The notes beneath the pieces are model-generated. The model ran no database searches. It was not told the DNA's origin and was given only the letters and a program-made list of their open reading frames with translations. The position numbers were made by a program, and so were the translations under genes. A stretch of 64,000 nt of DNA, taken from contig CAVSBL010000002.1 in assembly GCA_963726255.1 (NCBI GenBank), forward strand, positions 224,001-288,000, in the 5' to 3' direction. Source of the stretch: Candidatus Bathyarchaeota archaeon (GTDB lineage Archaea > Thermoproteota > Bathyarchaeia > 40CM-2-53-6). Below, one piece after another: positions 13,805-40,972 of this stretch (the first letter of the stretch is position 1; every line of letters begins with the position of its first letter).

Positions 13805-14515
13805 CTATCGTGTCAGAGAGGCTTTTCTTTTCAGGTATTGGATGAAATGTGGCGGGTCAATTGACTTCGGGCAGGCGTCCGCGCAGTTGAAGACGGTGTG
13901 GCATCGCCAGACGCCATCTTCGCATCCGACCAACATGAGGCGCTCGCGTTTGGCGGTATCCCTGCTGTCAGCAATGAAACGTGCGGCTTTCACGAGTGCG
14001 GCGGGGCCGGGGTACGATGGGTCGGTCCATGTCATGGGGCAAGATGAGAAGCAGGCTGCGCAATCGATGCAGTCGATGGCGACGTCAATCGCTTGCCTTT
14101 GCTTCTGTGATTGTAAGAATTCTCTTTCCGGGTACGGTTCATGGCTTTCGAAGTAGGGTTTCACCATGCCCATCTTTTGGAAGAAGGGGTGAAGGTCAAC
14201 TACCAAGTCGCGGATGATAGGTAGATGCGGTAAGGGTCCGATGGTGATCGTTGAACCTAGCGTGTCGATCTGGGTTTTGCACGCGAGTCGTTGCCGTCCG
14301 TTGATGTAAGTGGTGCAGCTTCCGCATACCGCGCTTCTACACGAATAGCGGAAAGCAAGCGTCCCGTCTTCTTTCTCAAGGACCTGGAACAACGCATCTA
14401 GAACGGTCATGCCGGGTTTTGTGGGGACATCGAAGGCGTCATAGTGTGGTTCCGCTTCGTTCTTCGGATCGTAGCGTTGAATCCTTAGGCGAACGGTGTT
14501 AGACCGGGGCGTCAA
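13805..14515 (-). CDS. sdhB: Succinate dehydrogenase/fumarate reductase iron-sulfur subunit
   Basis: CRSAVCGSC [2Fe-2S], CIDCAACFSSCP [4Fe-4S], CHTVFNCADACP [3Fe-4S]. Confidence 0.95.
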   Translation of the reverse strand: MTPRSNTVRLRIQRYDPKNEAEPHYDAFDVPTKPGMTVLDALFQVLEKEDGTLAFRYSCRSAVCGSCTTYINGRQRLACKTQIDTLGSTITIGPLPHLPIIRDLVVDLHPFFQKMGMVKPYFESHEPYPEREFLQSQKQRQAIDVAIDCIDCAACFSSCPMTWTDPSYPGPAALVKAARFIADSRDTAKRERLMLVGCEDGVWRCHTVFNCADACPKSIDPPHFIQYLKRKASLTR

Positions 14516-16194
14516 TACTTTCTCTCCTCCGGTTGGTACCGAGTTATCGTCACAGGTGAGAAGTCGATTCGGGCGCCGTCGGCCGTCTTGTAGACGAGCG
14601 TATGCTTCAAGAAGTTAACATCGTCCCGCTGCGGAAAATCAAGGCGCACGTGTGAGCCACGTGATTCTTTACGACTCAAGGCGGAGGCAACTATTACTTC
14701 ACTCAGTTCCAGCATATCTTCAAGTTCGATTGTGCGGATTAGGTCGAGATTGTACACCTTATGGCCATTTACTGGCCTGAGGTTGCGAAGCCTCACCTTC
14801 AGCTCCTTTATCGCCGAGGCTGCCTCCTCGAGCCCCTGTCTGTTCCTGAACAGGAATACCTTGTCGACCATTAGGCTTCGCATTTCTTCGCGAATAGTCC
14901 ATGGGTCTTCTTCTCCTCCTCCGTTGAAGAGCGCGGAGAAATGTTGCTGCTCTCTTCTCAGCGCGTCCCTGCAGCTTATTTCGTCTGTCCCATCGACAGG
15001 AATACTCTTTGCGAATTTTCCTGCTTCTTCCCCGGCTATTTTTCCGAAGACAACCGTTTCAAGCAGTGAGTTTCCGCCCAACCTGTTTGCGCCGTGAACG
15101 CTGACGCATGCGCATTCGCCCGCGGCGTAGAGGCCTTTGATTGTGGTTTGGCATCTTATGTTGCAATCCACTCCGCCCATTGTGTAATGCTGGGCTGGCT
15201 GGACGGGGATCGTTTTCGTGATCGGGTCGACGGCAGCAAAATCCATCGCAATGTCGCGTATGCCGGGGAGGTTGCTGAGAATCTTCTTCTTTCCGAGGTG
15301 GCGAACGTCTAGCTCAACATAGAGGCCATTTACACCTCGTCCCGCATCGATCTCTTTCTGAATTGAGCGGCTGACAATGTCGCGGGGAGCAAGCTCCATA
15401 GCCTTAGGGGCGTAGCGTTGCATGAAGCGCTCGCCTTGGGAGTTCACGAGGTAGCCGCCCTCGCCGCGGGCTCCCTCAGTAATCAAAATACAGGTCGGGT
15501 AGAGCGCGGTGGGGTGGAATTGTACAAATTCCATATCTTTCAACGCGACCCCTGCCCGGTACGCCATAGCCATTCCGCTGCCGGTGTTGATCATCGAGTT
15601 AGTTGATTTCCCGTAAATCCAGCCTGCACCACCCGTAGCTAAAATGACCGCTTTCGCCCGGAAGGCCTCTACTTCGCCGGTCAGGATATCGAGGGCTACG
15701 AGGCCTTTGACGGCGTCGTTCTCAACGATAAGGGAAGTGACGAGCCATTCCTCGTATACCTTCACATTTCGCTTTAGGACCTGCTCATAGGCTGTGACGA
15801 GTAGGTAGTGTCCCGTTTTATCGGCTGCGAAGCACGTTCGAGGGTAACCTGCCCCACCGAACGGCCTTTGTGCGATTTTACCGTTCTCGGTTCGGCTGAA
15901 GGGGCAACCCCAGTGTTCCATTTCAATTATCCGGGACGGGGCTTCCTTCGTCATGAGTTCGACGGCGTCTTGGTCGGCTAGGAAGTCGCTGCCCTTGATT
16001 GTATCATATGCATGCTTCTCCCAGTTGTCGTCGCGGTTCGCCTCAATGTTACCCAGCGCTGCGTTGATACCGCCCTGCGCCGCCCCCGTGTGTGATCTTA
16101 GCGGGTGGACTCGACTGAAGATACACGTGTCCGCGTAACGGGACGATTCGATTGCTGCACGGAGGCCTGCGAGGCCACCGCCAACTATGATCAC
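14512..16194 (-). CDS. sdhA: Succinate dehydrogenase/fumarate reductase flavoprotein (start may extend to 16206)
   Basis: GGGLAG, RSHTGAAQGG covalent-FAD His, QFHPT, TEGARGEGG, HYTMGG, HGANRLGGNSL. Confidence 0.96.
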   Translation of the reverse strand: MIIVGGGLAGLRAAIESSRYADTCIFSRVHPLRSHTGAAQGGINAALGNIEANRDDNWEKHAYDTIKGSDFLADQDAVELMTKEAPSRIIEMEHWGCPFSRTENGKIAQRPFGGAGYPRTCFAADKTGHYLLVTAYEQVLKRNVKVYEEWLVTSLIVENDAVKGLVALDILTGEVEAFRAKAVILATGGAGWIYGKSTNSMINTGSGMAMAYRAGVALKDMEFVQFHPTALYPTCILITEGARGEGGYLVNSQGERFMQRYAPKAMELAPRDIVSRSIQKEIDAGRGVNGLYVELDVRHLGKKKILSNLPGIRDIAMDFAAVDPITKTIPVQPAQHYTMGGVDCNIRCQTTIKGLYAAGECACVSVHGANRLGGNSLLETVVFGKIAGEEAGKFAKSIPVDGTDEISCRDALRREQQHFSALFNGGGEEDPWTIREEMRSLMVDKVFLFRNRQGLEEAASAIKELKVRLRNLRPVNGHKVYNLDLIRTIELEDMLELSEVIVASALSRKESRGSHVRLDFPQRDDVNFLKHTLVYKTADGARIDFSPVTITRYQPEERKY

Positions 16195-16220
16195 ATCATG
16201 CGATATCGTACCCTATCCCC

Positions 16221-16553
16221 TCATCTAGTGAACACCAATGGCCAGAAACCGTACACCCCAAAAAGAAAAGCGGCAAACCCTAACATCACCAGGCTTACGG
16301 ACAAGTAATGTCTCCCTTGTGACCCAAGTCCGAAATCCAGTACTATTGACCTCACACCGTTGAGGCCGTGAAATAGAGCCAGGCTCAGTAGGGTGAGGTC
16401 GACGAGCGCTCTCAAAGATGTGGCCCAATCAGTCGAAAAGTTCGACACCCACAGGTGCAGTCCCAGAAAGACCACGAGAAGTACCGCTGTGATTCGTTGA
16501 AGAATCCAGAGGCCGACACTTTTCCGCAAACTCTGTTTCATCTCTCGTTTCAC
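16221..16553 (-). CDS. sdhD: Succinate dehydrogenase hydrophobic anchor
   Basis: QRITAVLL..LGLH and FHGLNGVR; three TM. Confidence 0.9.
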   Translation of the reverse strand: MKREMKQSLRKSVGLWILQRITAVLLVVFLGLHLWVSNFSTDWATSLRALVDLTLLSLALFHGLNGVRSIVLDFGLGSQGRHYLSVSLVMLGFAAFLFGVYGFWPLVFTR

Positions 16554-16972
16554 CCACCGTGCAGCATTGGCAGGGCGAACGTGATGACGTAGGCCGTTGT
16601 GAGGATGGCTATGACCATCGTTACCCAGAAGAACAGCCTATGTTTCCGAACGCCAATGCCCAAGTCCAACAACACAATTCGGACACCGTTCAATCCGTGA
16701 AAAGCAACAATGCCTAGGATTATCAAGTCGAAAGCTACCGTGGTGGAGCCGCCTGCCCAAAACGGGTTTCTAAGCACGTCGAACACCTCGGTCATAGAAC
16801 CAGTCGTAATGCCAAAGTTCGCTTGGGCAATCGCCATGATGTGGGTGAGCAGGAAAAAGACCAAGTAGAGTCCAGACACACGTTGAATCACCCAAGCATA
16901 CATTCCAAGCCTCATGTTTCGCGGGTTCAGGTCACTACTTCTGTCAACGAGCTTCCTCGTCCATCTAACCAA
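16550..16972 (-). CDS. sdhC: Succinate dehydrogenase cytochrome b subunit
   Basis: QRVSGLYL..LTH and FHGLNGVRIVL; three TM. Confidence 0.9.
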   Translation of the reverse strand: MVRWTRKLVDRSSDLNPRNMRLGMYAWVIQRVSGLYLVFFLLTHIMAIAQANFGITTGSMTEVFDVLRNPFWAGGSTTVAFDLIILGIVAFHGLNGVRIVLLDLGIGVRKHRLFFWVTMVIAILTTAYVITFALPMLHGG

Positions 16973-16989
16973 ATTGATTCACTCTCCCC

Positions 16990-17199
16990 TCAATCCCAGC
17001 CGTAGAACACAACAGAAGCTGCATAGAGTAAAGCGGCGAAGCAGAGTATTGCCAATCCCGCGAATGCTGCGAAGATTTTCTCGTACCCGCCCATGTCAGC
17101 AACCATAGCTTCATATAGAAAGGCGAATTCGAGGATAATGAGCAACACAGCCAACGCTACCCAACCCTGGGAAATATTATCCGTACTGTGACCACTCAC
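16990..17199 (-). CDS. Small two-TM protein in the Rieske/cyt b-sdh operon
   Basis: 69 aa, two hydrophobic helices, abuts neighbouring genes. Confidence 0.75.
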   Translation of the reverse strand: MSGHSTDNISQGWVALAVLLIILEFAFLYEAMVADMGGYEKIFAAFAGLAILCFAALLYAASVVFYGWD

Positions 17200-17460
17200 T
17201 TACTCGAACCATCCAACTCTGTTGTGTATGCGCTCCGCCCGCTTGTCCACTCTATAGACCTCTCGTGCCAGATAGGCCACTGATGCAATTACGACGACTA
17301 GGTCGCCAACAATCGAGGCCGCGTTCGATGCGTTCAAGCCGGTTCTGGCGGCATGAAGGAGAAGCGGCATCAAGTTCGAAACCGCATACGTACCGACGAC
17401 AAACGCTACGGCAAGAAGAAGCATACGTGCGGCGCGCCTAGTCGAAGAATTAACTTTCAT
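17200..17460 (-). CDS. Small two-TM protein in the Rieske/cyt b-sdh operon
   Basis: 86 aa, ATGA overlap with upstream gene, two TM and a basic tail. Confidence 0.78.
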   Translation of the reverse strand: MKVNSSTRRAARMLLLAVAFVVGTYAVSNLMPLLLHAARTGLNASNAASIVGDLVVVIASVAYLAREVYRVDKRAERIHNRVGWFE

Positions 17461-17987
17461 TTTTCGAGGCTCCTTCTTATTCTTCGATTGGCATAAAGAA
17501 CCAAGAACACTAACACGGCCGCCGCCATGTTGGTCACGAGGAAAGCCGTAGCAAACCCAGGGTCAGTAAAGGAACCTACTTGGCCCGGCGAGAGGTAGCC
17601 GTAAATCGTCAGGCCTAGAAATTCAGCGGCCACGACGAATGCAACTGCAGCAAAGATGGGCCTTCTCAGCGGGCGGCGTTCCGAACCTCGGTCGATGAAG
17701 GGAACCGCTAGCAAGAAAATTCCGAGACATGCAAGTATCAAGACGCCGTAGAGGGGTTGGACGCCTTGGGTCTTTAGAAACTGGTATACCCCCATGAAAT
17801 ACCATTCAGGTTCAAGAATTGCCGGCGGATGGAGGGGGTCGAACTTTTTCCCAAGTTGGAGAGGAAAGAGGGCTACGAAGATTGCGAGTAGTCCGATTAC
17901 GGCGAATGCGAGGCTCATTTCCGCCAATAAGACATTTGGGAAGAATGGAACGTTCTCCCGGGGTTCTTCCTCAGAGGGGTCTTGCAA
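17457..17987 (-). CDS. Cytochrome b C-terminal part (subunit IV-like)
   Basis: PFFPN, PEWY Qo motif and VPFIDR...RRP. Confidence 0.92.
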   Translation of the reverse strand: MQDPSEEEPRENVPFFPNVLLAEMSLAFAVIGLLAIFVALFPLQLGKKFDPLHPPAILEPEWYFMGVYQFLKTQGVQPLYGVLILACLGIFLLAVPFIDRGSERRPLRRPIFAAVAFVVAAEFLGLTIYGYLSPGQVGSFTDPGFATAFLVTNMAAAVLVFLVLYANRRIRRSLEK

Positions 17988-18621
17988 TTCTATGCCTCCG
18001 AATCATCCAAAAGTGAAACGCCATCAATAGGACAAGTAATCCTGGGATGAGCAGTATGTGGCTGGCGAAGAAGCGGCCAAGCGTGTCCGTGTAGTTGTTT
18101 CCCCAGAAAAGGTAGGTTATGGTGCTTCCGAGTTGCGGAATCGAATCAGCGAGCCCTAAACCCACGCCGGCGGCGCCCACTGCTTCCTGATCCCAACGGA
18201 GAACGTACCCTGTGAAGCCAGCCATCACGGTGAAGGCGCCGAGTCCGATCCCAATGATCCAGTTGAGTTCTCTCGGTTTCTTGTATGCGCCGGTGAAGTA
18301 GACGCGAAGCATGTGTAGAATTGAAGTGATTATCATTCCGTTAGCTGAATAGAAATGGATCCCACGTATCAGCCAGCCGTACTTCACATTCATAGTGATA
18401 ACTTGGACGCTATCGTAGGCGCTGTCTGGTATCGGCTTGTAGTACATCGCAAGCATGATGCCTGTTACGGTTAGGAGAACGAAGAAGAGGAATGTGAGGC
18501 CGCCAAGGCAATACATCGGGTTGAGGGCTCGTTCGGTGATCTTCGTATTCAAGATTGGTTCGATTCTGGTTCGTTCCACAAACCAATGCCAAATCCTCTG
18601 GGAGAATGGGCGACGGCGCAT
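17971..18621 (-). CDS. Cytochrome b N-terminal part (b6-like)
   Basis: YCLGG, four heme His, YKKPRELNW, FTGYVLRWDQ, C-terminal IARPL. Confidence 0.94.
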   Translation of the reverse strand: MRRRPFSQRIWHWFVERTRIEPILNTKITERALNPMYCLGGLTFLFFVLLTVTGIMLAMYYKPIPDSAYDSVQVITMNVKYGWLIRGIHFYSANGMIITSILHMLRVYFTGAYKKPRELNWIIGIGLGAFTVMAGFTGYVLRWDQEAVGAAGVGLGLADSIPQLGSTITYLFWGNNYTDTLGRFFASHILLIPGLLVLLMAFHFWMIRRHRIARPL

Positions 18622-18627
18622 TCCTTC

Positions 18628-19128
18628 TCAAGCCTCACCATAGAGGGGAAGCCCACTCTCGTAACCGTCCGCGTAAATGTCCCCCTGATTGTCAATTTCG
18701 AGCTTGATCTTTGGTAAAGGCCGCGGCGGAGGACCGCCCAAAACGTTTCCCGTCTCGGGGTCGAAAACACCCCCATGGCACGAGCAGAAGTTCTGGTCTG
18801 GTTTACTCTCCCATCCTGCTACGACAGTTTTGTCGTAGTGTACTTGACATCCGAGGTGCGTGCATATCGAATCGAATGCCACAAAACCGTCGGACAAGTG
18901 AATGAGAACGGCCGGTCGGTCTTTGTGCGGATATTCAAACAGCAGGCTCGTGTTGACGGGCACATCGTTCGTATTGGCAACCCGCAGTCTAGGGTAAGTT
19001 AGAGGGCCGGTTTCATGGGGAACGAACAGAAACTGCCCAAGCCTCTCTAGCGGAAAGAGCAGCGCAACTGCTCCAAACAGGGCTGTCCCCTTTAGGAAAC
19101 TACGCCTACTGAGTCTGCGGTTTGGCAA
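18628..19128 (-). CDS. Rieske [2Fe-2S] protein with Tat anchor
   Basis: SRRSFLK Tat motif, CTHLGC, CSCHGGVF, GPPPRPL. Confidence 0.95.
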   Translation of the reverse strand: MPNRRLSRRSFLKGTALFGAVALLFPLERLGQFLFVPHETGPLTYPRLRVANTNDVPVNTSLLFEYPHKDRPAVLIHLSDGFVAFDSICTHLGCQVHYDKTVVAGWESKPDQNFCSCHGGVFDPETGNVLGGPPPRPLPKIKLEIDNQGDIYADGYESGLPLYGEA

Positions 19129-19200
19129 TGGTCGTACATGATGAGAGGGTAACGGTCTCTGTTTATTGGTATGGGATTAACAGAAAATACTATTCATACT

Positions 19201-19217
19201 TGGTGGGGCCGAAGGGA
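19201..19217 (-). repeat. att-like copy of tRNA-Trp 3' end (outer island boundary)
   Basis: 17/17 identical to 42772-42788. Confidence 0.9.
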
Positions 19218-19218
19218 C

Positions 19219-19362
19219 TGGCAAAACAGGCTACATAAGAATGAACTGCTGAGCCATCAAATATCCAAACGCGGTGGCGTAATGCGCGTAAGAGTTGGAG
19301 ACAAACGGGTGTTCATCGGCGGCAAAGCCGTAACGATTCTCCACGCCGAACTTCATGAATAA
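19219..19362 (+). pseudogene. 5'-truncated PhzF-family gene remnant
   Basis: WQNRLHKNELLSHQISKRGGVMRVRVGDKRVFIGGKAVTI resembles the PhzF/YddE C-terminus; begins right at the att repeat. Confidence 0.72.
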
Positions 19363-19407
19363 CCACTTAAAGAATGCACCATAGTTCATTCGTCAAACTA
19401 TGAGTGG

Positions 19408-20364
19408 GTGGCTCCGATGAAACTAGTCGTAGTAGACCATGTGCACCTTACAGACCGTCACATTCAACAACTTCGCCGAATGGGCGAGCTGCAGGTCTTC
19501 GGTGACCCGCCGAAATCCGATGAAGAATTGAGGGAGAGAATGCGGGGAGCCGACATCGTGATAGTTGGCTGGAGCAATATTACGAAAGAAATTCTCGAGT
19601 CGGTCCCAAACCTCAAGATGTTAGCGATCTGGGCTACGACCTGTCATTACGTAGACCTCGAAGCTGCTAAGAAACGAGGCATCGTCGTCACACACGTCCC
19701 AGGCTACGGTACCGAAGCAGTGGCTGAACACGCCTTCGTCCTGCTGCTCGCGACAATTAGAAAATTGTTGCTGGCTGACCATCAGATCAGAGAGGGAAAG
19801 TTTGATTGGCGGCCGCTCAAAGGAGCAGAACTTGCTGACAAAACCATAGGAATCGTTGGTACCGGTGCAATCGGCTGCAGAGTCGGCGAGATAGCCAAAG
19901 GTTTTCGAATGCGCATCCTAGGCTATGACATCACGCCAAACCACAAGAAGGCCCAAGAAATCGGGATGAAATACGTTGACCTTCAAACCTTGCTGAAGGA
20001 AAGTGACATCATAAGCCTGCATGTCACCCTAACCGCCAATTCAGAACATCTAATCGGAAAGAAGGAGTTTGAAATGATGAAGAACGGCGCTATCTTGATC
20101 AACACTTCTCAAGGCAAGGTGGTTGACGAGAAAGCGATAGTCGACGCACTTATTTCAGGCAAATTGTCCTGCGCTGGGCTAGACGTTTTCTCGCAGGAAC
20201 CTCCAGCCCGAGACAATCCACTGTTCAAACTTGACAACGTGGTTCTCACGCCTCACATAGGCTTCCACACAGGCGAAGCCGTGGAGAGATGCAGTGACAT
20301 ATGCGTTGACAACGTCGCGAAATTCTTGGAGGGACGCCCGCAGAACATCTGCGCGTCACCTTGA
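19408..20364 (+). CDS. D-isomer-specific 2-hydroxyacid dehydrogenase
   Basis: AVAEHA, GIVGTGAIG, LDVFSQEP and TPHIG motifs. Confidence 0.93.
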   Translation: MAPMKLVVVDHVHLTDRHIQQLRRMGELQVFGDPPKSDEELRERMRGADIVIVGWSNITKEILESVPNLKMLAIWATTCHYVDLEAAKKRGIVVTHVPGYGTEAVAEHAFVLLLATIRKLLLADHQIREGKFDWRPLKGAELADKTIGIVGTGAIGCRVGEIAKGFRMRILGYDITPNHKKAQEIGMKYVDLQTLLKESDIISLHVTLTANSEHLIGKKEFEMMKNGAILINTSQGKVVDEKAIVDALISGKLSCAGLDVFSQEPPARDNPLFKLDNVVLTPHIGFHTGEAVERCSDICVDNVAKFLEGRPQNICASP

Positions 20365-29341: not shown

Positions 29342-32300
29342 TTAGCCGCGTGGAGTCGAAAATTTCTCGTCATCCGATAATTCAAGCTTAATCATTTCAT
29401 CGATATCATGTATGCAAGAGTCAGCAATTACTCGGACAGTTTCTGAAGATACCTGATCATCCTTGATTTTCTGAAAGATCGCCTTACGTCGGACCAGCTC
29501 AGGCGGAGGTTCACCGGGTCTCGCCGTATATGCATGAGGCGGATGCGTCTTTCGGTAGAACATTGACTCAACTTGATTTCTTAATCCAGCTGAGATGCCC
29601 TCAGATCCAACCCTCGCGAAGATATTCGAATTATCTTCTTTGAGTTCTAGAAATTCACATGCGGTTAACGCGTTCTCGATTCTATGAGCGTTCAGCTGTC
29701 TATCGATGTATGTCGTAAGACTCGCCTGCATTTGAAGTCGATTCGGGTCTGCGAAGGGTAGGAAGAGATTGCGTAGGCACATTTGGTAGATTGCGTCTTT
29801 GCTGTACCATGCTATGACTGCGTCCATTAGTTTGTCGAATGCCTCGACTGATTTCGTCAAACTCGCTACTGCGTCGATTCCATCTCCAGGTATTGGCTCA
29901 TACTGGTAATCTTTCATGCGAATTGTTGAGAGGCGTTCCTGAAGGAGAAAGATTACTGACTGTATATCAGAGCACACAAACGAGATGATTCGTTGAGAAT
30001 CGTAGTCTAAGTTGGGCATCTCAACTAGTCGGTTCAGTAATGCCCTTCGCAGTAGTACAAGCTCATGTGAAGGAAGTGCCCCAATGATGTTTCCCTTCCG
30101 CAGGAGAACCAAAGACACAGCGAAGCTTAGCTGCTGATAATCATCCTCCATAGAAACTCCAAGACGCAATAGCTTAGTGAGTAAGTACACACTCTGAAAC
30201 TTGTCGAATAAGAAATCGAGATAGCTAATTACTTGATATTTGGTGCCGGAGCTTCCGAACGTCAGTAATTTGTGGAGCCAAAGGTATAAACTGAAAGAGG
30301 AAATTGTGTTCTTGGTAGTCGATTTAGTTCTGTTGTCGTCAATACGACTGAACTTGTCAAAGACGGCCGCAACGATCGTTTGATACCCTCCTTTGTCAAG
30401 TAATTCTATGAATCTACTATAGGTTCGAGACCTTGTAAATTGAAACCTGCATGTACATGCTAAAAAGGCCTGCACTTTTGACTCGGAAGTTCTCGGAAGT
30501 TCTGAAATAGTCTCCTCAGCCATCATTCGAAGGAAGCGCCCATCGAGTTCTGCAAGAGCTGCTTGCATTTCGTCCTTGAAGCGAGTCGGGGTGTCGGCCC
30601 AAAGTGCATTGTTGCTTCTAATTTCCGCGAACACTGGTCTCTGTTGATGAACCCATGAGGTTAGTATCGGAGCGGTCACACGGTTGGGCGGCTCCCGCAG
30701 CGATTTGTCCAATGACTTAAGAAATCGCAAAACGTCGCCAGGTGTAGGATACTTCTCTGGCAAAGTGGAGGTTATTTTGTCGAATTCTTCCGGTAAGAAT
30801 ACTCGTCTAGACGTGAATGACTGAATGAACCATTTCCAACGCCCATCCTGTGGTGCGTTTTTCCTCAGATTCTCGAAGCTCTCTGAGATGTAATATGGCG
30901 ATAGGTAGTGACTGAACATCAAATATTCAGAAGATCTAGGCATCGCTTCCAAGAACTTCTCAGTTTCCTCTGTACCAGGAGTGCTCTGTGCCCACCAAGT
31001 CAAGAACAGGTTCTCAATTTTGTTCAGAACTGCAAAATCCATATCTGATCTGATTGTGTTTCCTATTAGTCGAGTTACATGTCTCCTTTCTTGAGCAATT
31101 CTTGATTCAAGTGGCAAGGCACTCTCACTAACCCTTTGCAATCGAGTCTTTCCGAGAACTTCAGCAACATCTAGTGCTGCAATTCTTGCCTTTGGTGAAG
31201 AATGTTCGATCATAAGCGAGAGAACTCTAAGGGCTTCGTCTCTAATCGCTGTCACCTCGGCGGTTTGTGAAAGAATCTTTTCTCCGAACGTCACCCTGAG
31301 TGTCCTGGATTCTGAATATTCATGGGAACCAGCGAGAACCTCCGAAAGAGCTGGAAAGAGCAGCTCGACTTGTGTGTCCGATCCGTTTATCCAAGTTTCT
31401 AGGATCGACAGCGCCTCGCAGATCTGAGATGCGCTGTTCTGCAAAGGAGAGACGCATGAACGTATCAATGATTTTGTCTTGTAGTTGTCGTATCTGCCTG
31501 GAATGTTCTTCCTGTGAAGTAGATTGATGATGTCAAGTATTGTTGATCGAGATTGACGTGTTGAGATTAATTGCGCAATGACAGGTCCGTAGTCATCCGT
31601 TGATAGTGGCAGACGAGGGTCGTCGTCATCTCTTTCTATGTAACATCGAAGAAGGCGTGCACATTCGGTCGGAACGATCGGGGTTATGCTAGGAATCGCG
31701 TTGAGGACTCCTCGCATAGATCGGTGAGGTCCTTCGTTCGGATGTAATGACCAATGTAAAACATGTCCCGCCAATACTCGTCTAAGGCTTGGAACTTCTG
31801 CGTATTTAGCGGCTGATGCTAAGTTGTTCAGTGCGTTCTCAGGGGCGGTTTGAAGCCAGGGGTCAACCAACGAAATCAGGTTTTCTACATTCATGTTCTG
31901 AATCTGTCGCAAAAGGTACAGGTCGCCCTTCATGTCAGGGTTGAACCGGACCGTGTCGCCAATTTCTCTCAGTATTCCTGCTCTGATCATTCGATTCAAT
32001 GAATCTTGTAATAGCTCTCGCTCTTGCGATATCACCGTGGATATGCTTGAGATTGTTGGCGGGGATAAAGCGATGAATGTCTGTGAAATCGAAGTCGTCT
32101 CTCGTTTTGATATAGGAGATATCAAAGTCAGGTTTGTGACTAGCTGTGTTACAACATTTCTTGGCATTAACCCGTTAAGGCATTGAAACGCTTCGAATTC
32201 AAGTTCCCCACTCAGTCTTGCCTTAATTGCCTCGATGTCAAAAGTGGTCTGACCACTCAGACGCCTACCAATCCACACGATAATGAATGGATTCGGATAT

Positions 32301-33328
32301 TGGGCGACAATCTCTAACTCATCAGGCACGGTGTCCTTCCCAGCAGCAACATGCAACAGTTTGACGAGATCCTCAGAGCTCCAGTCCTCAATGCGTATGT
32401 CTTCGGAAAATTCTGCCAGCCTCAGGGCATTCAGTTGCTCGTTAACGGCCTGTAGTGCCGCGCTTCGTAGTGCGATAACCAGTTTCGTCGAACGCGGATT
32501 AGTCTTGCACATAGTCAATAATGATCTGAGATCGTCTGTAATCGCATCTGCCTCGTCCAGGAACAAGACGTATGCTCTGCCCGGCACAAGCTCATCTCCT
32601 ATCGCCTCGGTCATTGAACGCGGGCCTAGTCGGGTAGCCCATGGCTGAAAGAGATTGTTGGTTTGATGAGCTAAGCTGGCTATCTGTCGAAGAAGATGAG
32701 ATTTTCCATAACCGCCTGGAGAATGTACTAGGAGAACAGTGCGGTCAGACAACAGGAATCGCTTTGCTCTTGCCAGATATTGCTCGAACGACGAATTCAC
32801 GCCGTCGATTGGTAGGAGTTGCGGCGCGTTTTCGTTGAAATACAAGTTCCAAGGAACGAATTTTGGAAATTGTGGAGCGCCAAAAAAGAAGTGTCGTAAG
32901 AAAGGTTGACGCTCAATCCGAATGGTCAAGCGCTCTCGATGCCAGACTTTCAGAGAAATTGAGGTGCCCGTGTTCAGTTTTTCAAGAGTGCGTACTTGAG
33001 ACGTTTTCATTTGCGCATTTGTTGCAACTCTCAAATGGTCTGCTTTGTTTTGTTTCGCCTTGTCAAGCTCTGCTTTAATCTCCTTAGTAAGTATTCGTTG
33101 GGCCTCTTTCATCGATTTGGTTGTCCACTTTGATTGTATCGACCAATGTCCGCTGAGTTCTTCCATCGGATACTCCCCGGTGAAATCACCATCAAATCCG
33201 CCATCGGCTCCGATGTAAGGGCTGCTTGGTATGAATCCTGGGGAATTGCATTCTAACGCAAAGAGGTGATTCACCAAACGCTGAAACGTCTTCTCGTTGT
33301 CTATCCTTGACCATTCGAGCGTTGACAT
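29342..33328 (-). CDS. Mrr-like nuclease fused to STAND-type P-loop NTPase with long helical C-terminus (Avs-like defence protein)
   Basis: N-terminal FQRLV...GADGGFD...IQSK; Walker A SPGGYGKS; Walker B LFLDEAD; 1328 aa. Confidence 0.78.
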   Translation of the reverse strand: MSTLEWSRIDNEKTFQRLVNHLFALECNSPGFIPSSPYIGADGGFDGDFTGEYPMEELSGHWSIQSKWTTKSMKEAQRILTKEIKAELDKAKQNKADHLRVATNAQMKTSQVRTLEKLNTGTSISLKVWHRERLTIRIERQPFLRHFFFGAPQFPKFVPWNLYFNENAPQLLPIDGVNSSFEQYLARAKRFLLSDRTVLLVHSPGGYGKSHLLRQIASLAHQTNNLFQPWATRLGPRSMTEAIGDELVPGRAYVLFLDEADAITDDLRSLLTMCKTNPRSTKLVIALRSAALQAVNEQLNALRLAEFSEDIRIEDWSSEDLVKLLHVAAGKDTVPDELEIVAQYPNPFIIVWIGRRLSGQTTFDIEAIKARLSGELEFEAFQCLNGLMPRNVVTQLVTNLTLISPISKRETTSISQTFIALSPPTISSISTVISQERELLQDSLNRMIRAGILREIGDTVRFNPDMKGDLYLLRQIQNMNVENLISLVDPWLQTAPENALNNLASAAKYAEVPSLRRVLAGHVLHWSLHPNEGPHRSMRGVLNAIPSITPIVPTECARLLRCYIERDDDDPRLPLSTDDYGPVIAQLISTRQSRSTILDIINLLHRKNIPGRYDNYKTKSLIRSCVSPLQNSASQICEALSILETWINGSDTQVELLFPALSEVLAGSHEYSESRTLRVTFGEKILSQTAEVTAIRDEALRVLSLMIEHSSPKARIAALDVAEVLGKTRLQRVSESALPLESRIAQERRHVTRLIGNTIRSDMDFAVLNKIENLFLTWWAQSTPGTEETEKFLEAMPRSSEYLMFSHYLSPYYISESFENLRKNAPQDGRWKWFIQSFTSRRVFLPEEFDKITSTLPEKYPTPGDVLRFLKSLDKSLREPPNRVTAPILTSWVHQQRPVFAEIRSNNALWADTPTRFKDEMQAALAELDGRFLRMMAEETISELPRTSESKVQAFLACTCRFQFTRSRTYSRFIELLDKGGYQTIVAAVFDKFSRIDDNRTKSTTKNTISSFSLYLWLHKLLTFGSSGTKYQVISYLDFLFDKFQSVYLLTKLLRLGVSMEDDYQQLSFAVSLVLLRKGNIIGALPSHELVLLRRALLNRLVEMPNLDYDSQRIISFVCSDIQSVIFLLQERLSTIRMKDYQYEPIPGDGIDAVASLTKSVEAFDKLMDAVIAWYSKDAIYQMCLRNLFLPFADPNRLQMQASLTTYIDRQLNAHRIENALTACEFLELKEDNSNIFARVGSEGISAGLRNQVESMFYRKTHPPHAYTARPGEPPPELVRRKAIFQKIKDDQVSSETVRVIADSCIHDIDEMIKLELSDDEKFSTPRG

Positions 33329-39267: not shown

Positions 39268-39352
39268 TGTTCGTTTGTTCGCTGAGCCCAAATATGTTCG
39301 CTCCTTGCGAACGTGTTCGCTAGTAGCGAACATTCATATATGATAGCGAACA
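39268..39352. promoter_or_regulatory. Putative autoregulatory operators and TATA box of the AbiE-like operon
   Basis: GTTCGC-N5-GCGAAC at 39296-39312 and 39315-39331, extra half-sites, TATAT about 25 nt before ATG 39364. Confidence 0.72.
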
Positions 39353-39363
39353 CACTCTTCCCC

Positions 39364-40044
39364 ATGCGAGTTGTTCGGAATATCTTCGAAATCAAATCGT
39401 CCAGAGCAATTAGGGTCTTGTTATCTAACCCGGGCAGAAAATGGACTATCAGGGAGCTCGCATCCGAGGCCAGGGTGGCTTTCGGATATGTTCATGCGGT
39501 GGTCGCCAATCTGATGCAGAGTGGCTACTTGCTGAGGAACCAGGTCAATCGGCTGGAACTCGTTGATCCAATTCGTCTTATCAAACGGTGGGCCGCCTAT
39601 CACCAATTCAATGCCGTTAACAAGATGCTTCCCTACTACACTTTTGAAAGAGAAATAGACACTCTGATCGGTAAATTGCAGGACGTTGAGCAGGACTATG
39701 CGCTTACCTCTTTGTCGGGTGCTTGGCTTGCGGTTCCGCAGGTCAGACCTGTAATGATCGAAGCCTACATACGCGATGCTTTGCAGGCTGAGAAACTATC
39801 CAAGCAGTTGCAACTAAAGCCGATTCCGAAGGAAGGGAACGTCCGTCTGATCGTGCCATACGATGACGGAGTCTTCTACAAGGCTCAGAAAATTGAAGGA
39901 ATTCGGATTGTCTCTAATGTTCAGCTATACGTGGATCTTTACAACTACCCGGCTAGAGGAGAGGAAGCGTCATTGGCGGTGTTGGCGCTGGTCGAGAACG
40001 CTTGGAAGCAAGCGCTAATCGGTGTGACGAAGACAATTGTATGA
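39364..40044 (+). CDS. AbiEi-like type IV antitoxin (wHTH regulator)
   Basis: TIRELASEARVAFGYVH HTH; YALTSLSGA, GNVRL, VQLYVDL..RGEEA. Confidence 0.82.
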   Translation: MRVVRNIFEIKSSRAIRVLLSNPGRKWTIRELASEARVAFGYVHAVVANLMQSGYLLRNQVNRLELVDPIRLIKRWAAYHQFNAVNKMLPYYTFEREIDTLIGKLQDVEQDYALTSLSGAWLAVPQVRPVMIEAYIRDALQAEKLSKQLQLKPIPKEGNVRLIVPYDDGVFYKAQKIEGIRIVSNVQLYVDLYNYPARGEEASLAVLALVENAWKQALIGVTKTIV

Positions 40045-40972
40045 CCGCAAGTTGACTGAAGCCTCAAAGGGGGCTCTCCTCGAGGTTTGTATGGCGCTCA
40101 ACGATTACAGGCATGACTTTGTTCTAGCGGGAGGATGGGCTCCCTACTTCCTAAGTAGAGACCATTTCGATCACTGCGGTTCAATCGACATAGACTTAGT
40201 CTTGAAGCCCAAGGTGATACGCAGATATGAGAGCATCAAGGAAATTGTTCTCCGATTAGGTTACAAAGAAACGAGAAATCCATTCCGGTTCAATCGTGAG
40301 ATCAGCTCCTTAGACGAAACGAACAAATTTAACGTGGGATTAGATTTCTTGACCGAACCCGATAAGGAAGCTCTTGAAGAGGTGGTCAATGTCCAGGAGG
40401 ATCTCAGAGCCTCTCTGATAAGAGGATCAAGTATCGTGTTCGATTTTAACTACCCTGAGAACCTAAGCGCAAAACTCCCTGCGGGGGGCTCGGCGTCGAC
40501 GACGCTTGATGTAGCAAACGTTGTCAGCTCTATTGCCATGAAGGGTCTCGCGTTGCTACGTCTCAAAGACAAAGATAGTTACGACATTTATGCTGTTGCC
40601 GGTTTTCATACTGGTGACCCAAATGGAGCCGCTGATGCCTTCAAGAATTTGATTGGTTCGAAAGGACATGGTTTGCCATTTGTAGTGTCTGAAGCCTTAG
40701 GTACCATCACAAACGCTTTCAACTCACCCACGAGCTACGGATGCGTTGCCGCGGCACGTTTCTTAGGATCCGACGAGGTGCGTACTGATGCTTGTCAGCG
40801 AGTCACAGCGTTCCTCGATGAGATCTCCTCCAAATTAGATAGGCCCCCCACGAGTAATGACGACGCCGTCAACACAGATAGCAGCACCCACACCAACAAC
40901 CACGCAGATGCCTACCTCCTTGTCCACTCCTTTTCCCTTGCTGCTCCCAACACCATTCCCCGCTGTCGCTAA
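40037..40972 (+). CDS. AbiEii-like nucleotidyltransferase toxin
   Basis: LAGGWA, SIDID, MKGLA and KDSYDI motifs; overlaps the antitoxin stop. Confidence 0.82.
   Translation: MYDRKLTEASKGALLEVCMALNDYRHDFVLAGGWAPYFLSRDHFDHCGSIDIDLVLKPKVIRRYESIKEIVLRLGYKETRNPFRFNREISSLDETNKFNVGLDFLTEPDKEALEEVVNVQEDLRASLIRGSSIVFDFNYPENLSAKLPAGGSASTTLDVANVVSSIAMKGLALLRLKDKDSYDIYAVAGFHTGDPNGAADAFKNLIGSKGHGLPFVVSEALGTITNAFNSPTSYGCVAAARFLGSDEVRTDACQRVTAFLDEISSKLDRPPTSNDDAVNTDSSTHTNNHADAYLLVHSFSLAAPNTIPRCR

Follow-up and report, generated by a model that had tools for sequence, protein, structure and literature searches.

In the textbook picture, complexes II and III are distinct enzymes, and the quinone pool is their one point of contact. 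Among archaeal Rieske/cytochrome b systems, SoxM and SoxLN-CbsAB-OdsN of Sulfolobus and haloarchaeal petABD with halocyanin use blue-copper or haem-b proteins in place of cytochrome c and are co-encoded with small hydrophobic proteins, and we know of no archaeal Rieske/cytochrome b system without a cytochrome c that is co-encoded with succinate dehydrogenase (SDH). Here we describe a locus of this composition in a 64,000-nt stretch of DNA from Candidatus Bathyarchaeota archaeon (assembly GCA_963726255.1, contig CAVSBL010000002.1, positions 224,001 to 288,000 of the forward strand; hereafter the window), in which nine minus-strand open reading frames (ORFs) for a Rieske/cytochrome b unit, two small membrane proteins and a four-subunit SDH are packed into positions 13805-19128 with spacings of -17 to +26 nt. 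Each of the two enzymes is of a known kind; their fusion into one locus, the orphan subunits at the seam and the missing acceptor are the new part. Full-text literature searches, supplements excluded, yielded no description of an operon joining Rieske/cytochrome b and sdh genes, archaeal or general, and none appears in the available text of PMC11697101, PMC10321748, PMC12727194 or PMC5600118.

The genome belongs to soil and peat Bathyarchaeia (2.42 Mb in 5 contigs, rated 98.5% complete), and archaeal ribosomal protein genes on the operon's contig identify that contig as archaeal; close homologues are labelled Candidatus Bathyarchaeia archaeon. Pfam and NCBIfam assign seven of the nine ORFs and leave those of 86 and 69 aa unassigned (Table 1). 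Neither collection finds a cupredoxin or oxidase domain among the nine products, and a motif scan finds no CxxCH in any of them. The first-pass annotation of this DNA had described nine co-oriented genes, overlapping or less than 30 nt apart, without a CxxCH cytochrome c, a blue-copper protein or an oxidase; the coordinates, family matches and motif scan agree with that description in every particular. Judged from the DNA, the nine genes form one operon-like unit that is probably co-transcribed, and we refer to it as the operon.

Two enzymes of known kinds

The cytochrome b6f complexes of cyanobacteria and chloroplasts and the b6c-type complexes of Firmicutes and heliobacteria likewise combine a split cytochrome b, the same haem ligands and the CxGG and PEWY motifs with a Rieske protein bearing a twin-arginine translocation (TAT) signal, and from its sequence features the Rieske/cytochrome b half of the operon is predicted to be a split b6-type quinol oxidase without a c-type cytochrome. 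The best solved relatives of the N-terminal half of cytochrome b are cytochrome b6 chains, matched end to end at 171 bits, vs 99 bits for bc1 cytochrome b. The haem ligands H89, H103, H188 and H203 are invariant in 65 cytochrome b sequences, as is C38-x-G-G; the ligand spacings, H-x13-H and H-x14-H, align to cytochrome b6, and the cysteine of C38-L-G-G aligns to Cys35 of b6. PEWY, the Qo-site motif, is invariant in 13 sequences of the C-terminal half. Both Rieske boxes, CTHLGC and CxCHG, are invariant in 15 aligned sequences, the second reading C-x-C-H-G-(G/A)-V-F, a pattern that goes with lower-potential Rieske centres. Scores stay under the NCBIfam cut-offs for cytochrome b6 (NF002990, 206.7 vs 325 bits), for ExtP (NF040969, 225.6 vs 290 bits) and, for the Rieske protein, in its best match, AioB-like (66.9 bits, cut-off 95.65). 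The CxGG motif is linked to haem cn and, in the available text of Dibrova et al. 2017 (PMC5600118), does not occur in subfamily N, the short cytochromes b of archaea, so that the operon's cytochrome b, which carries it, would represent a different archaeal type. The operon differs from b6f and b6c complexes on the acceptor side: it encodes none of the c-type cytochrome subunits (cytochrome f, c1 or a fused c) that b6-type complexes use as acceptor, and the 98.5% complete genome has no match to the cytochrome c maturation family (PF01578) and only 30 ORFs with any CxxCH. The subunit-IV-like protein also differs from these complexes, having four hydrophobic segments.

Outside the archaeal clade, the nearest cytochromes b (32-43% identity) come from bacterial Rieske/cytochrome b sets in metagenome-assembled genomes (MAGs) of Elusimicrobia, Planctomycetes, Chloroflexi, Rubrobacteraceae and Kofleriaceae. 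The Rieske gene adjoins cytochrome b in many of these sets, and CxxCH proteins follow cytochrome b in four of the seven loci inspected, where the archaeal clade has the two small proteins and SDH instead. In a cytochrome b tree made by a quick method only, two long paralogues of the same genome join the operon's clade through long branches, so that no donor lineage can be named for cytochrome b.

The SDH half resembles Sdh2 of Mycobacterium smegmatis (PDB 6LUM) in its two-haem class A anchor, its four axial histidines and its SDH-type glutamine. Among solved structures, SdhC and SdhD have relatives in chains C and D of 6LUM alone, and SdhA scores best with 6LUM_A (508.7 bits). SdhC His44 and His92, invariant in 14 aligned orthologues, and SdhD His33 and His62, invariant in 13, align to His C47/C87 and D65/D107 of 6LUM, which coordinate haems bD and bP axially (available text of PMC7447783), a match of all four residues that upholds, as a prediction, the two-haem SdhCD anchor proposed at first pass. 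SdhA keeps the flavin-binding (covalent-FAD) histidine and the SDH-type glutamine, its His35 and Gln40 aligning to His43 and Gln48 of 6LUM_A, and Gln-A48 is given as a marker of succinate-oxidising SDH (available text of PMC7447783). SdhB, read directly, has twelve cysteines in the usual three Fe-S cluster motifs. With two Sdh_cyt anchors of two axial histidines each and the SdhA and SdhB marks in place, the features are those of class A, and this half is predicted to be a two-haem class A succinate:quinone reductase (SQR), probably working in the succinate-oxidising direction. An oxidative Krebs-cycle role is favoured by the SDH-type glutamine, by class I fumarase genes that lie right after sdhB in two of seven loci checked, and by the genus we call g14, where the operon's type of SdhA is the only SdhA found in seven of eight holders. 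The two fumarase loci carry the alpha and beta genes on the same strand as sdhB (L027 12950-14405; L029 13347-14802). Against 1.84 billion representative proteins, the best full-length SdhA matches are at most 51% identical, and the few named ones (an MSBL1 archaeon, Peregrinibacteria, Eggerthellaceae) do not resolve its origin.

Two differences from Sdh2 concern the company that the enzyme keeps. The genes of Sdh2, a succinate:menaquinone reductase, have no Rieske/cytochrome b unit alongside, whereas those of the archaeal SDH do. Sdh2 also carries a small extra membrane subunit, SdhF, a 3 kDa single helix that is mainly mycobacterial (available text of PMC7447783), in place of which the operon has two unrelated proteins with two transmembrane (TM) segments each. 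By hydropathy, the 86-aa and 69-aa products both have two hydrophobic segments. The former ends in a conserved basic tail; in the latter, all 31 sequences compared keep W13, E24, F43, F46, G48 and L49, the glutamate lying within the first segment. Relatives are few, 33 and 30 respectively among 5.8 billion proteins, and the named ones are all from Bathyarchaeia except for one bin labelled Acidoferrales. No paralogue of either occurs in the same genome and no homologue among 11,144 stop-to-stop ORFs of 67 bacterial loci with related cytochromes b, and the ESM Atlas gave only clusters without names (best scores 0.84 and 0.80) and hence no lead. Both are present in all 13 full loci of the Bathyarchaeia type, the 86-aa gene having been missed by tblastn in two of the 13 and found on reading the frames. 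We infer that the two proteins are extra membrane subunits of one of the two enzymes.

Table 1. Genes of the operon and its upstream element, in window coordinates and in gene order; distances are taken from the coordinates
Feature	Length	Position	Strand	Family matches and marks	Distance to next gene (nt)
Promoter-like element		19161..19193	-	12-nt core 19182-19193, 14 nt spacer, A/T-rich TATA-like heptamer 19161-19167	
Rieske 2Fe-2S protein	166 aa	18628..19128	-	PF00355 36 bits; TAT signal PF10518 24.1 bits (above cut-off of 22.7); one N-terminal TM anchor	+6
Cytochrome b6-type N-terminal half	216 aa	17971..18621	-	PF00033 153.8 bits	-17
Cytochrome b C-terminal half, subunit-IV-like	176 aa	17457..17987	-	PF00032 52.3 bits; PEWY; four hydrophobic segments (hydropathy)	-4
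Membrane protein	86 aa	17200..17460	-	two TM segments, basic C-terminal tail; no Pfam/NCBIfam match	0
Membrane protein	69 aa	16990..17199	-	two TM segments, intramembrane Glu24; no Pfam/NCBIfam match	+17
SdhC, anchor	140 aa	16550..16972	-	PF01127 48.8 bits; His44, His92	-4
SdhD, anchor	110 aa	16221..16553	-	PF01127 41.7 bits; His33, His62	+26
SdhA flavoprotein	560 aa	14512..16194	-	TIGR01812 781.7 bits (cut-off 567.3)	-4
SdhB iron-sulfur protein	236 aa	13805..14515	-	NF004616 290.4 bits (cut-off 228)	

Linkage and transcription of the nine genes

An alignment scan with cytochrome b, using one genome per species, returned 80 nearest loci, 13 of the Bathyarchaeia type and 67 bacterial. The nine-gene order is kept in all 13 of the former and in all seven loci fetched from the window's genus, five of which differ in their flanks. 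None of the 67 bacterial loci has sdh within 8 kb of cytochrome b, which argues that the link between sdh and the Rieske/cytochrome b genes is a derived trait that has been retained. The order persists at cytochrome b identities down to 57% and at about 30% identity of the 86-aa protein, more than chance would be expected to preserve, and, by sequence identities and the cytochrome b tree, the SDH and Rieske/cytochrome b halves split into the same two genus clades. Among 401 sampled genomes of the class, a cytochrome b orthologue is present in 13, all from one family (8 of 23 genomes in genus g1, 5 of 10 in g14 and 0 of 26 in other genera). Within the 59 genomes of this family, the operon's type of SdhA, used as a probe, marked 18 holders (g1 10/23, g14 8/10): 14 carry the whole block, two carry the block up to a contig end and two have contigs that start inside sdhC or sdhD. 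In none of the 18 does this sdh set stand beside other genes.

Several individual loci call for comment. In L027-L029, the stretch before the Rieske gene encodes a pyridoxal phosphate (PLP) enzyme and two ClpP-like serine proteases (PF01972). The full block in L030 (G022, contig C85) carries the label Acidiferrales bacterium, and one protein cluster was named Terriglobales; we take both names for probable binning labels, given that this genome falls within the window's genus. The sdhA of L026 (G018), the cytochrome b and sdhA of L036/L119 (G331) and a COX1 gene at G331:C6:53438-54773 are broken by frame changes or stops, and in these two long-contig assemblies decay is indistinguishable from assembly indels.

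The junction between the halves bears on whether they are simply two independent, ordinary gene sets lying side by side, each with its own promoter. Both enzymes are complete and of known kinds, as such an explanation would have it, and the promoter and terminator consensus sequences scanned, which match about as often as in shuffled sequence (4 vs 4.2 and 5 vs 5.6), are of bacterial type and do not cover archaeal promoters. Across loci, however, the gap between the 69-aa gene and sdhC ranges from -25 to +30 nt and is an 8-nt overlap of the reading frames in six of six g14 loci, leaving no room for an internal promoter in g14; no T5 run occurs at the junction. With no unlinked set among the 18 holders, no linked set among the 67 bacterial relatives and flanks that vary around an intact block, we disfavour mere adjacency and regard it as the least probable of the explanations considered. 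The first-pass annotation had pointed to an internal promoter or terminator combined with a lack of conserved linkage as what would undo its proposal; the linkage proves to be conserved in two genera of one Bathyarchaeia family, and the DNA evidence gives no such combination.

A two-part element ahead of the Rieske gene is common to the window and 11 loci of two genera (12 loci), its TATA-like heptamer sitting about 33 nt before the Rieske TTG start (Table 1). We regard it as a putative promoter with a possible operator. When the genome was scanned with the 12-nt core at up to one mismatch, 11 matches were found, about the estimated chance level, and we claim no regulon. A near copy of the core with a TATA-like box lies at G000:C2:2229591-2229602 (minus strand; L112), about 50 nt before a redox operon with ferredoxin, 4Fe-4S protein, TfrA-like flavoprotein and HdrC/B/A-like genes. 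The two operons may have a regulator in common, but the 12-mer count in the genome is at chance level.

A conserved and translationally coupled operon for complexes II and III in archaea suggests selection for joint production, and perhaps for working as one unit. In its strongest form, this would mean that the nine products are physically joined in a II-III hybrid or supercomplex whose small proteins hold SdhCD against cytochrome b, with quinol passed straight to Qo or with SDH feeding the inner quinone site as in Mitchell's original Q cycle. Several observations would fit: the two orphan membrane proteins lie exactly between the halves, occur only with the block and do so in all 13 full loci; translation is coupled across the junction; the distal site of two-haem SQRs and Qo are both on the outer side (available text of PMC7447783); and Mitchell's 'donor d' idea, recounted in the available text of PMC5600118, anticipates such a feed. 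There is also a precedent in the mycobacterial malate enzyme Mqo on CIII2CIV2, a Krebs-cycle quinone reductase tied physically and functionally to complex III and steering one branch (PMC11874196). That case involves a different dehydrogenase, a binding seen by cryo-electron microscopy and, in the available text of the same paper, no report of a shared operon, whereas the archaeal case is known from genes alone. Sharing an operon is by itself weak evidence of binding, and the AB and CD genes of the other SDH in this genome are 310 kb apart, so that assembly in this organism does not depend on the genes being neighbours. We consider a physical II-III assembly unlikely, though it is the foremost of the alternatives.

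Electron flow, quinone and acceptor

On the observed gene content, cofactor ligands, spacing, linkage and upstream element we base a reading that we hold with somewhat better than even confidence, in which a co-transcribed unit would make both quinone-linked enzymes and electrons would run from succinate through quinone into the Rieske branch, towards a partner encoded elsewhere; the co-transcription, the direction of catalysis, the kind of quinone and the acceptor are the conditional parts of it. Succinate would reduce a low-potential quinone at the outer-side SdhCD site, and in two-haem enzymes quinone reduction at the outer site is taken to be powered by the proton potential (available text of PMC7447783). 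The Rieske/cytochrome b enzyme would then re-oxidise the quinol at Qo, on the same outer side, recovering energy through the Q cycle, and the Rieske cluster would pass its electron to the partner. In this genome the likely candidate would be a cupredoxin or, in one of the two haem-copper oxidases, the CuA subunit.

The genome is not that of a fermenter. Two COX1 genes score over the cut-off, one with COX2 and COX3 alongside, and there are a cytochrome bd, three Copper-bind matches, CuA-like proteins and two further Rieske/cytochrome b sets with long fused cytochromes b; the genome gave no match to CdhC, the acetyl-CoA synthase family. The first-pass annotation had called the operon unexpected in a lineage usually regarded as fermentative or acetogenic, which is overstated and only half new: this genome has oxidases and no CdhC, and Hou et al. 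2023, in the available text (PMC10321748), propose (micro)aerobic life for a soil Bathyarchaeia genus without the Wood-Ljungdahl pathway and with cytochrome oxidases. With that published aerobic genus, Houtuousia, the genome shares the oxidases and the lack of CdhC; isocitrate lyase (PF00463) was not found here, and we make no assignment. Bathyarchaeia are among the most abundant uncultured archaeal groups. To them the operon adds concrete respiratory hardware.

A number of observations weigh against the proposed reading. Neither the operon nor the flanks of seven loci contain an acceptor gene, and in phylogenetic profiling of two cupredoxins of this genome neither follows the operon, one occurring in 4 of the 59 family genomes and the other in none of the 10 g14 genomes. 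Over the cut-off, g14 genomes have COX1 in 3/10, cytochrome bd in 2/10, Copper-bind in 2/10 and EB_dh in 0/10, and four of the eight g14 holders have no O2 reductase that could be found; these four are 77-94% complete, in an overall range of 69-94%, and MAG incompleteness may explain part of the missing oxygen reductases. The unknown external redox partner proposed by the first-pass annotation thus stands, with nothing in seven flanks, two cupredoxins that do not track the operon and half of the g14 holders without an O2 reductase. The separate SdhAB and two-haem SdhCD in the same genome leave the need for a second SDH unexplained. In the only RNA-library run found (X1, Nanopore, wetland) with 15% of sampled words present, nine contigs, 90-99% alike, lie over 14096-16948 (sdhB to sdhC, the only coverage within the operon) and 19247-19596 and none over 17098-19207, and, as the contigs are a relative's and the library may hold DNA, the uncovered stretch is no finding and the run counts neither way on co-transcription.

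A further point against the proposed reading is the quinone, since no known head-group pathway scores above the cut-offs in the genome. MqnA and MqnD were not found, and MenD (40.7 vs 244 bits), MenB (160 vs 343) and MqnC (22 vs 428) all fall below their cut-offs. Two intact MenA-like prenyltransferases, also below cut-off, lie at L106 4173-5072 and L107 4673-5584, and a third, broken by a TAA, at C2:509569-510308. Three Rieske/cytochrome b sets thus stand alongside two SDHs and three oxidases in a genome with no head-group pathway above cut-off. Menaquinone use, which the first-pass annotation had associated with two-haem SQRs, gains no confirmation from these scores. A naphthoquinone would suit both the two-haem anchor and the Gly/Ala-Val-Phe box of the Rieske protein. 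The missing Men and Mqn families agree with the available text of PMC11697101, where Bathyarchaeia genome surveys identified no known quinone pathway and no terminal electron route. The operon raises the questions of which quinone these archaea make and of what oxidises the Rieske protein without a cytochrome c and, in some, without a known oxygen reductase.

One answer would be that no partner outside the operon is needed. In such a closed circuit, electrons would pass from the Rieske protein to the outer SdhCD haem and on through SdhB and SdhA to fumarate, making a quinol:fumarate reductase boosted by a Q cycle. The absent cytochrome c, the absent acceptor and the holders without O2 reductases would all be explained, and a two-haem anchor is a transmembrane wire. 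However, SdhA carries the SDH-type glutamine, and the fumarase genes beside sdhB in two loci, like the sole-SDH status in g14, are in keeping with an oxidative role in the Krebs cycle. The midpoint potentials are about -74 mV for menaquinone and about +30 mV for fumarate, and the energy estimated from these values is too small for the movement of four charges per fumarate that the circuit would entail. We judge the closed circuit highly improbable.

Another answer, which we rate as distinctly doubtful, would be that the operon encodes one succinate:acceptor oxidoreductase whose parts are obligately coupled. Its membrane body, with one or more private quinone sites, would then consist of SdhCD, cytochrome b and both orphan 2-TM proteins, SDH would channel quinol to Qo or serve as the second donor at the inner site, and the acceptor would be of an unrecognised kind, because half of the g14 holders have no known O2 reductase, cupredoxin or c-type cytochrome.

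Other redox sets and neighbouring genes

Of the further redox genes of this genome, the second Rieske/cytochrome b set (G000:C2:96959-100448; L019 6959-10448) comprises an EB_dh haem-domain protein of 371 aa, followed by a Rieske protein of 209 aa and a cytochrome b of 495 aa. It also has an overlapping ORF of 86 aa, which bears no relation to the product of the same length in the operon. If the Rieske protein had an extracellular haem-b protein as its acceptor, this would recall Sulfolobus CbsA. The third set (G000:C2:681434-684902; L020 7434-10902) has a Rieske protein of 245 aa with a second box of the Ser...Tyr type, a cytochrome b of 462 aa, a CuA-like protein of 152 aa and a haem O synthase, and it adjoins a complex I antiporter-like subunit. 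A similar CuA-like protein is encoded at L104 4603-6152, along with a second haem O synthase. The other SDH is split between sdhAB at C2:752408-754121 (L021) and the two-haem sdhCD at C2:1063589-1064434 (L114), each without partner genes nearby.

Elsewhere in the window, the plus strand carries an AbiEi/AbiEii-like toxin-antitoxin pair (39313-40972), and the minus strand encodes a 1328-aa protein with a STAND NTPase domain (29342-33328), near which several ORFs have no family. A LAGLIDADG homing endonuclease ORF of 162 aa lies at G000:C2:95242-95730 (L019 5242-5730).

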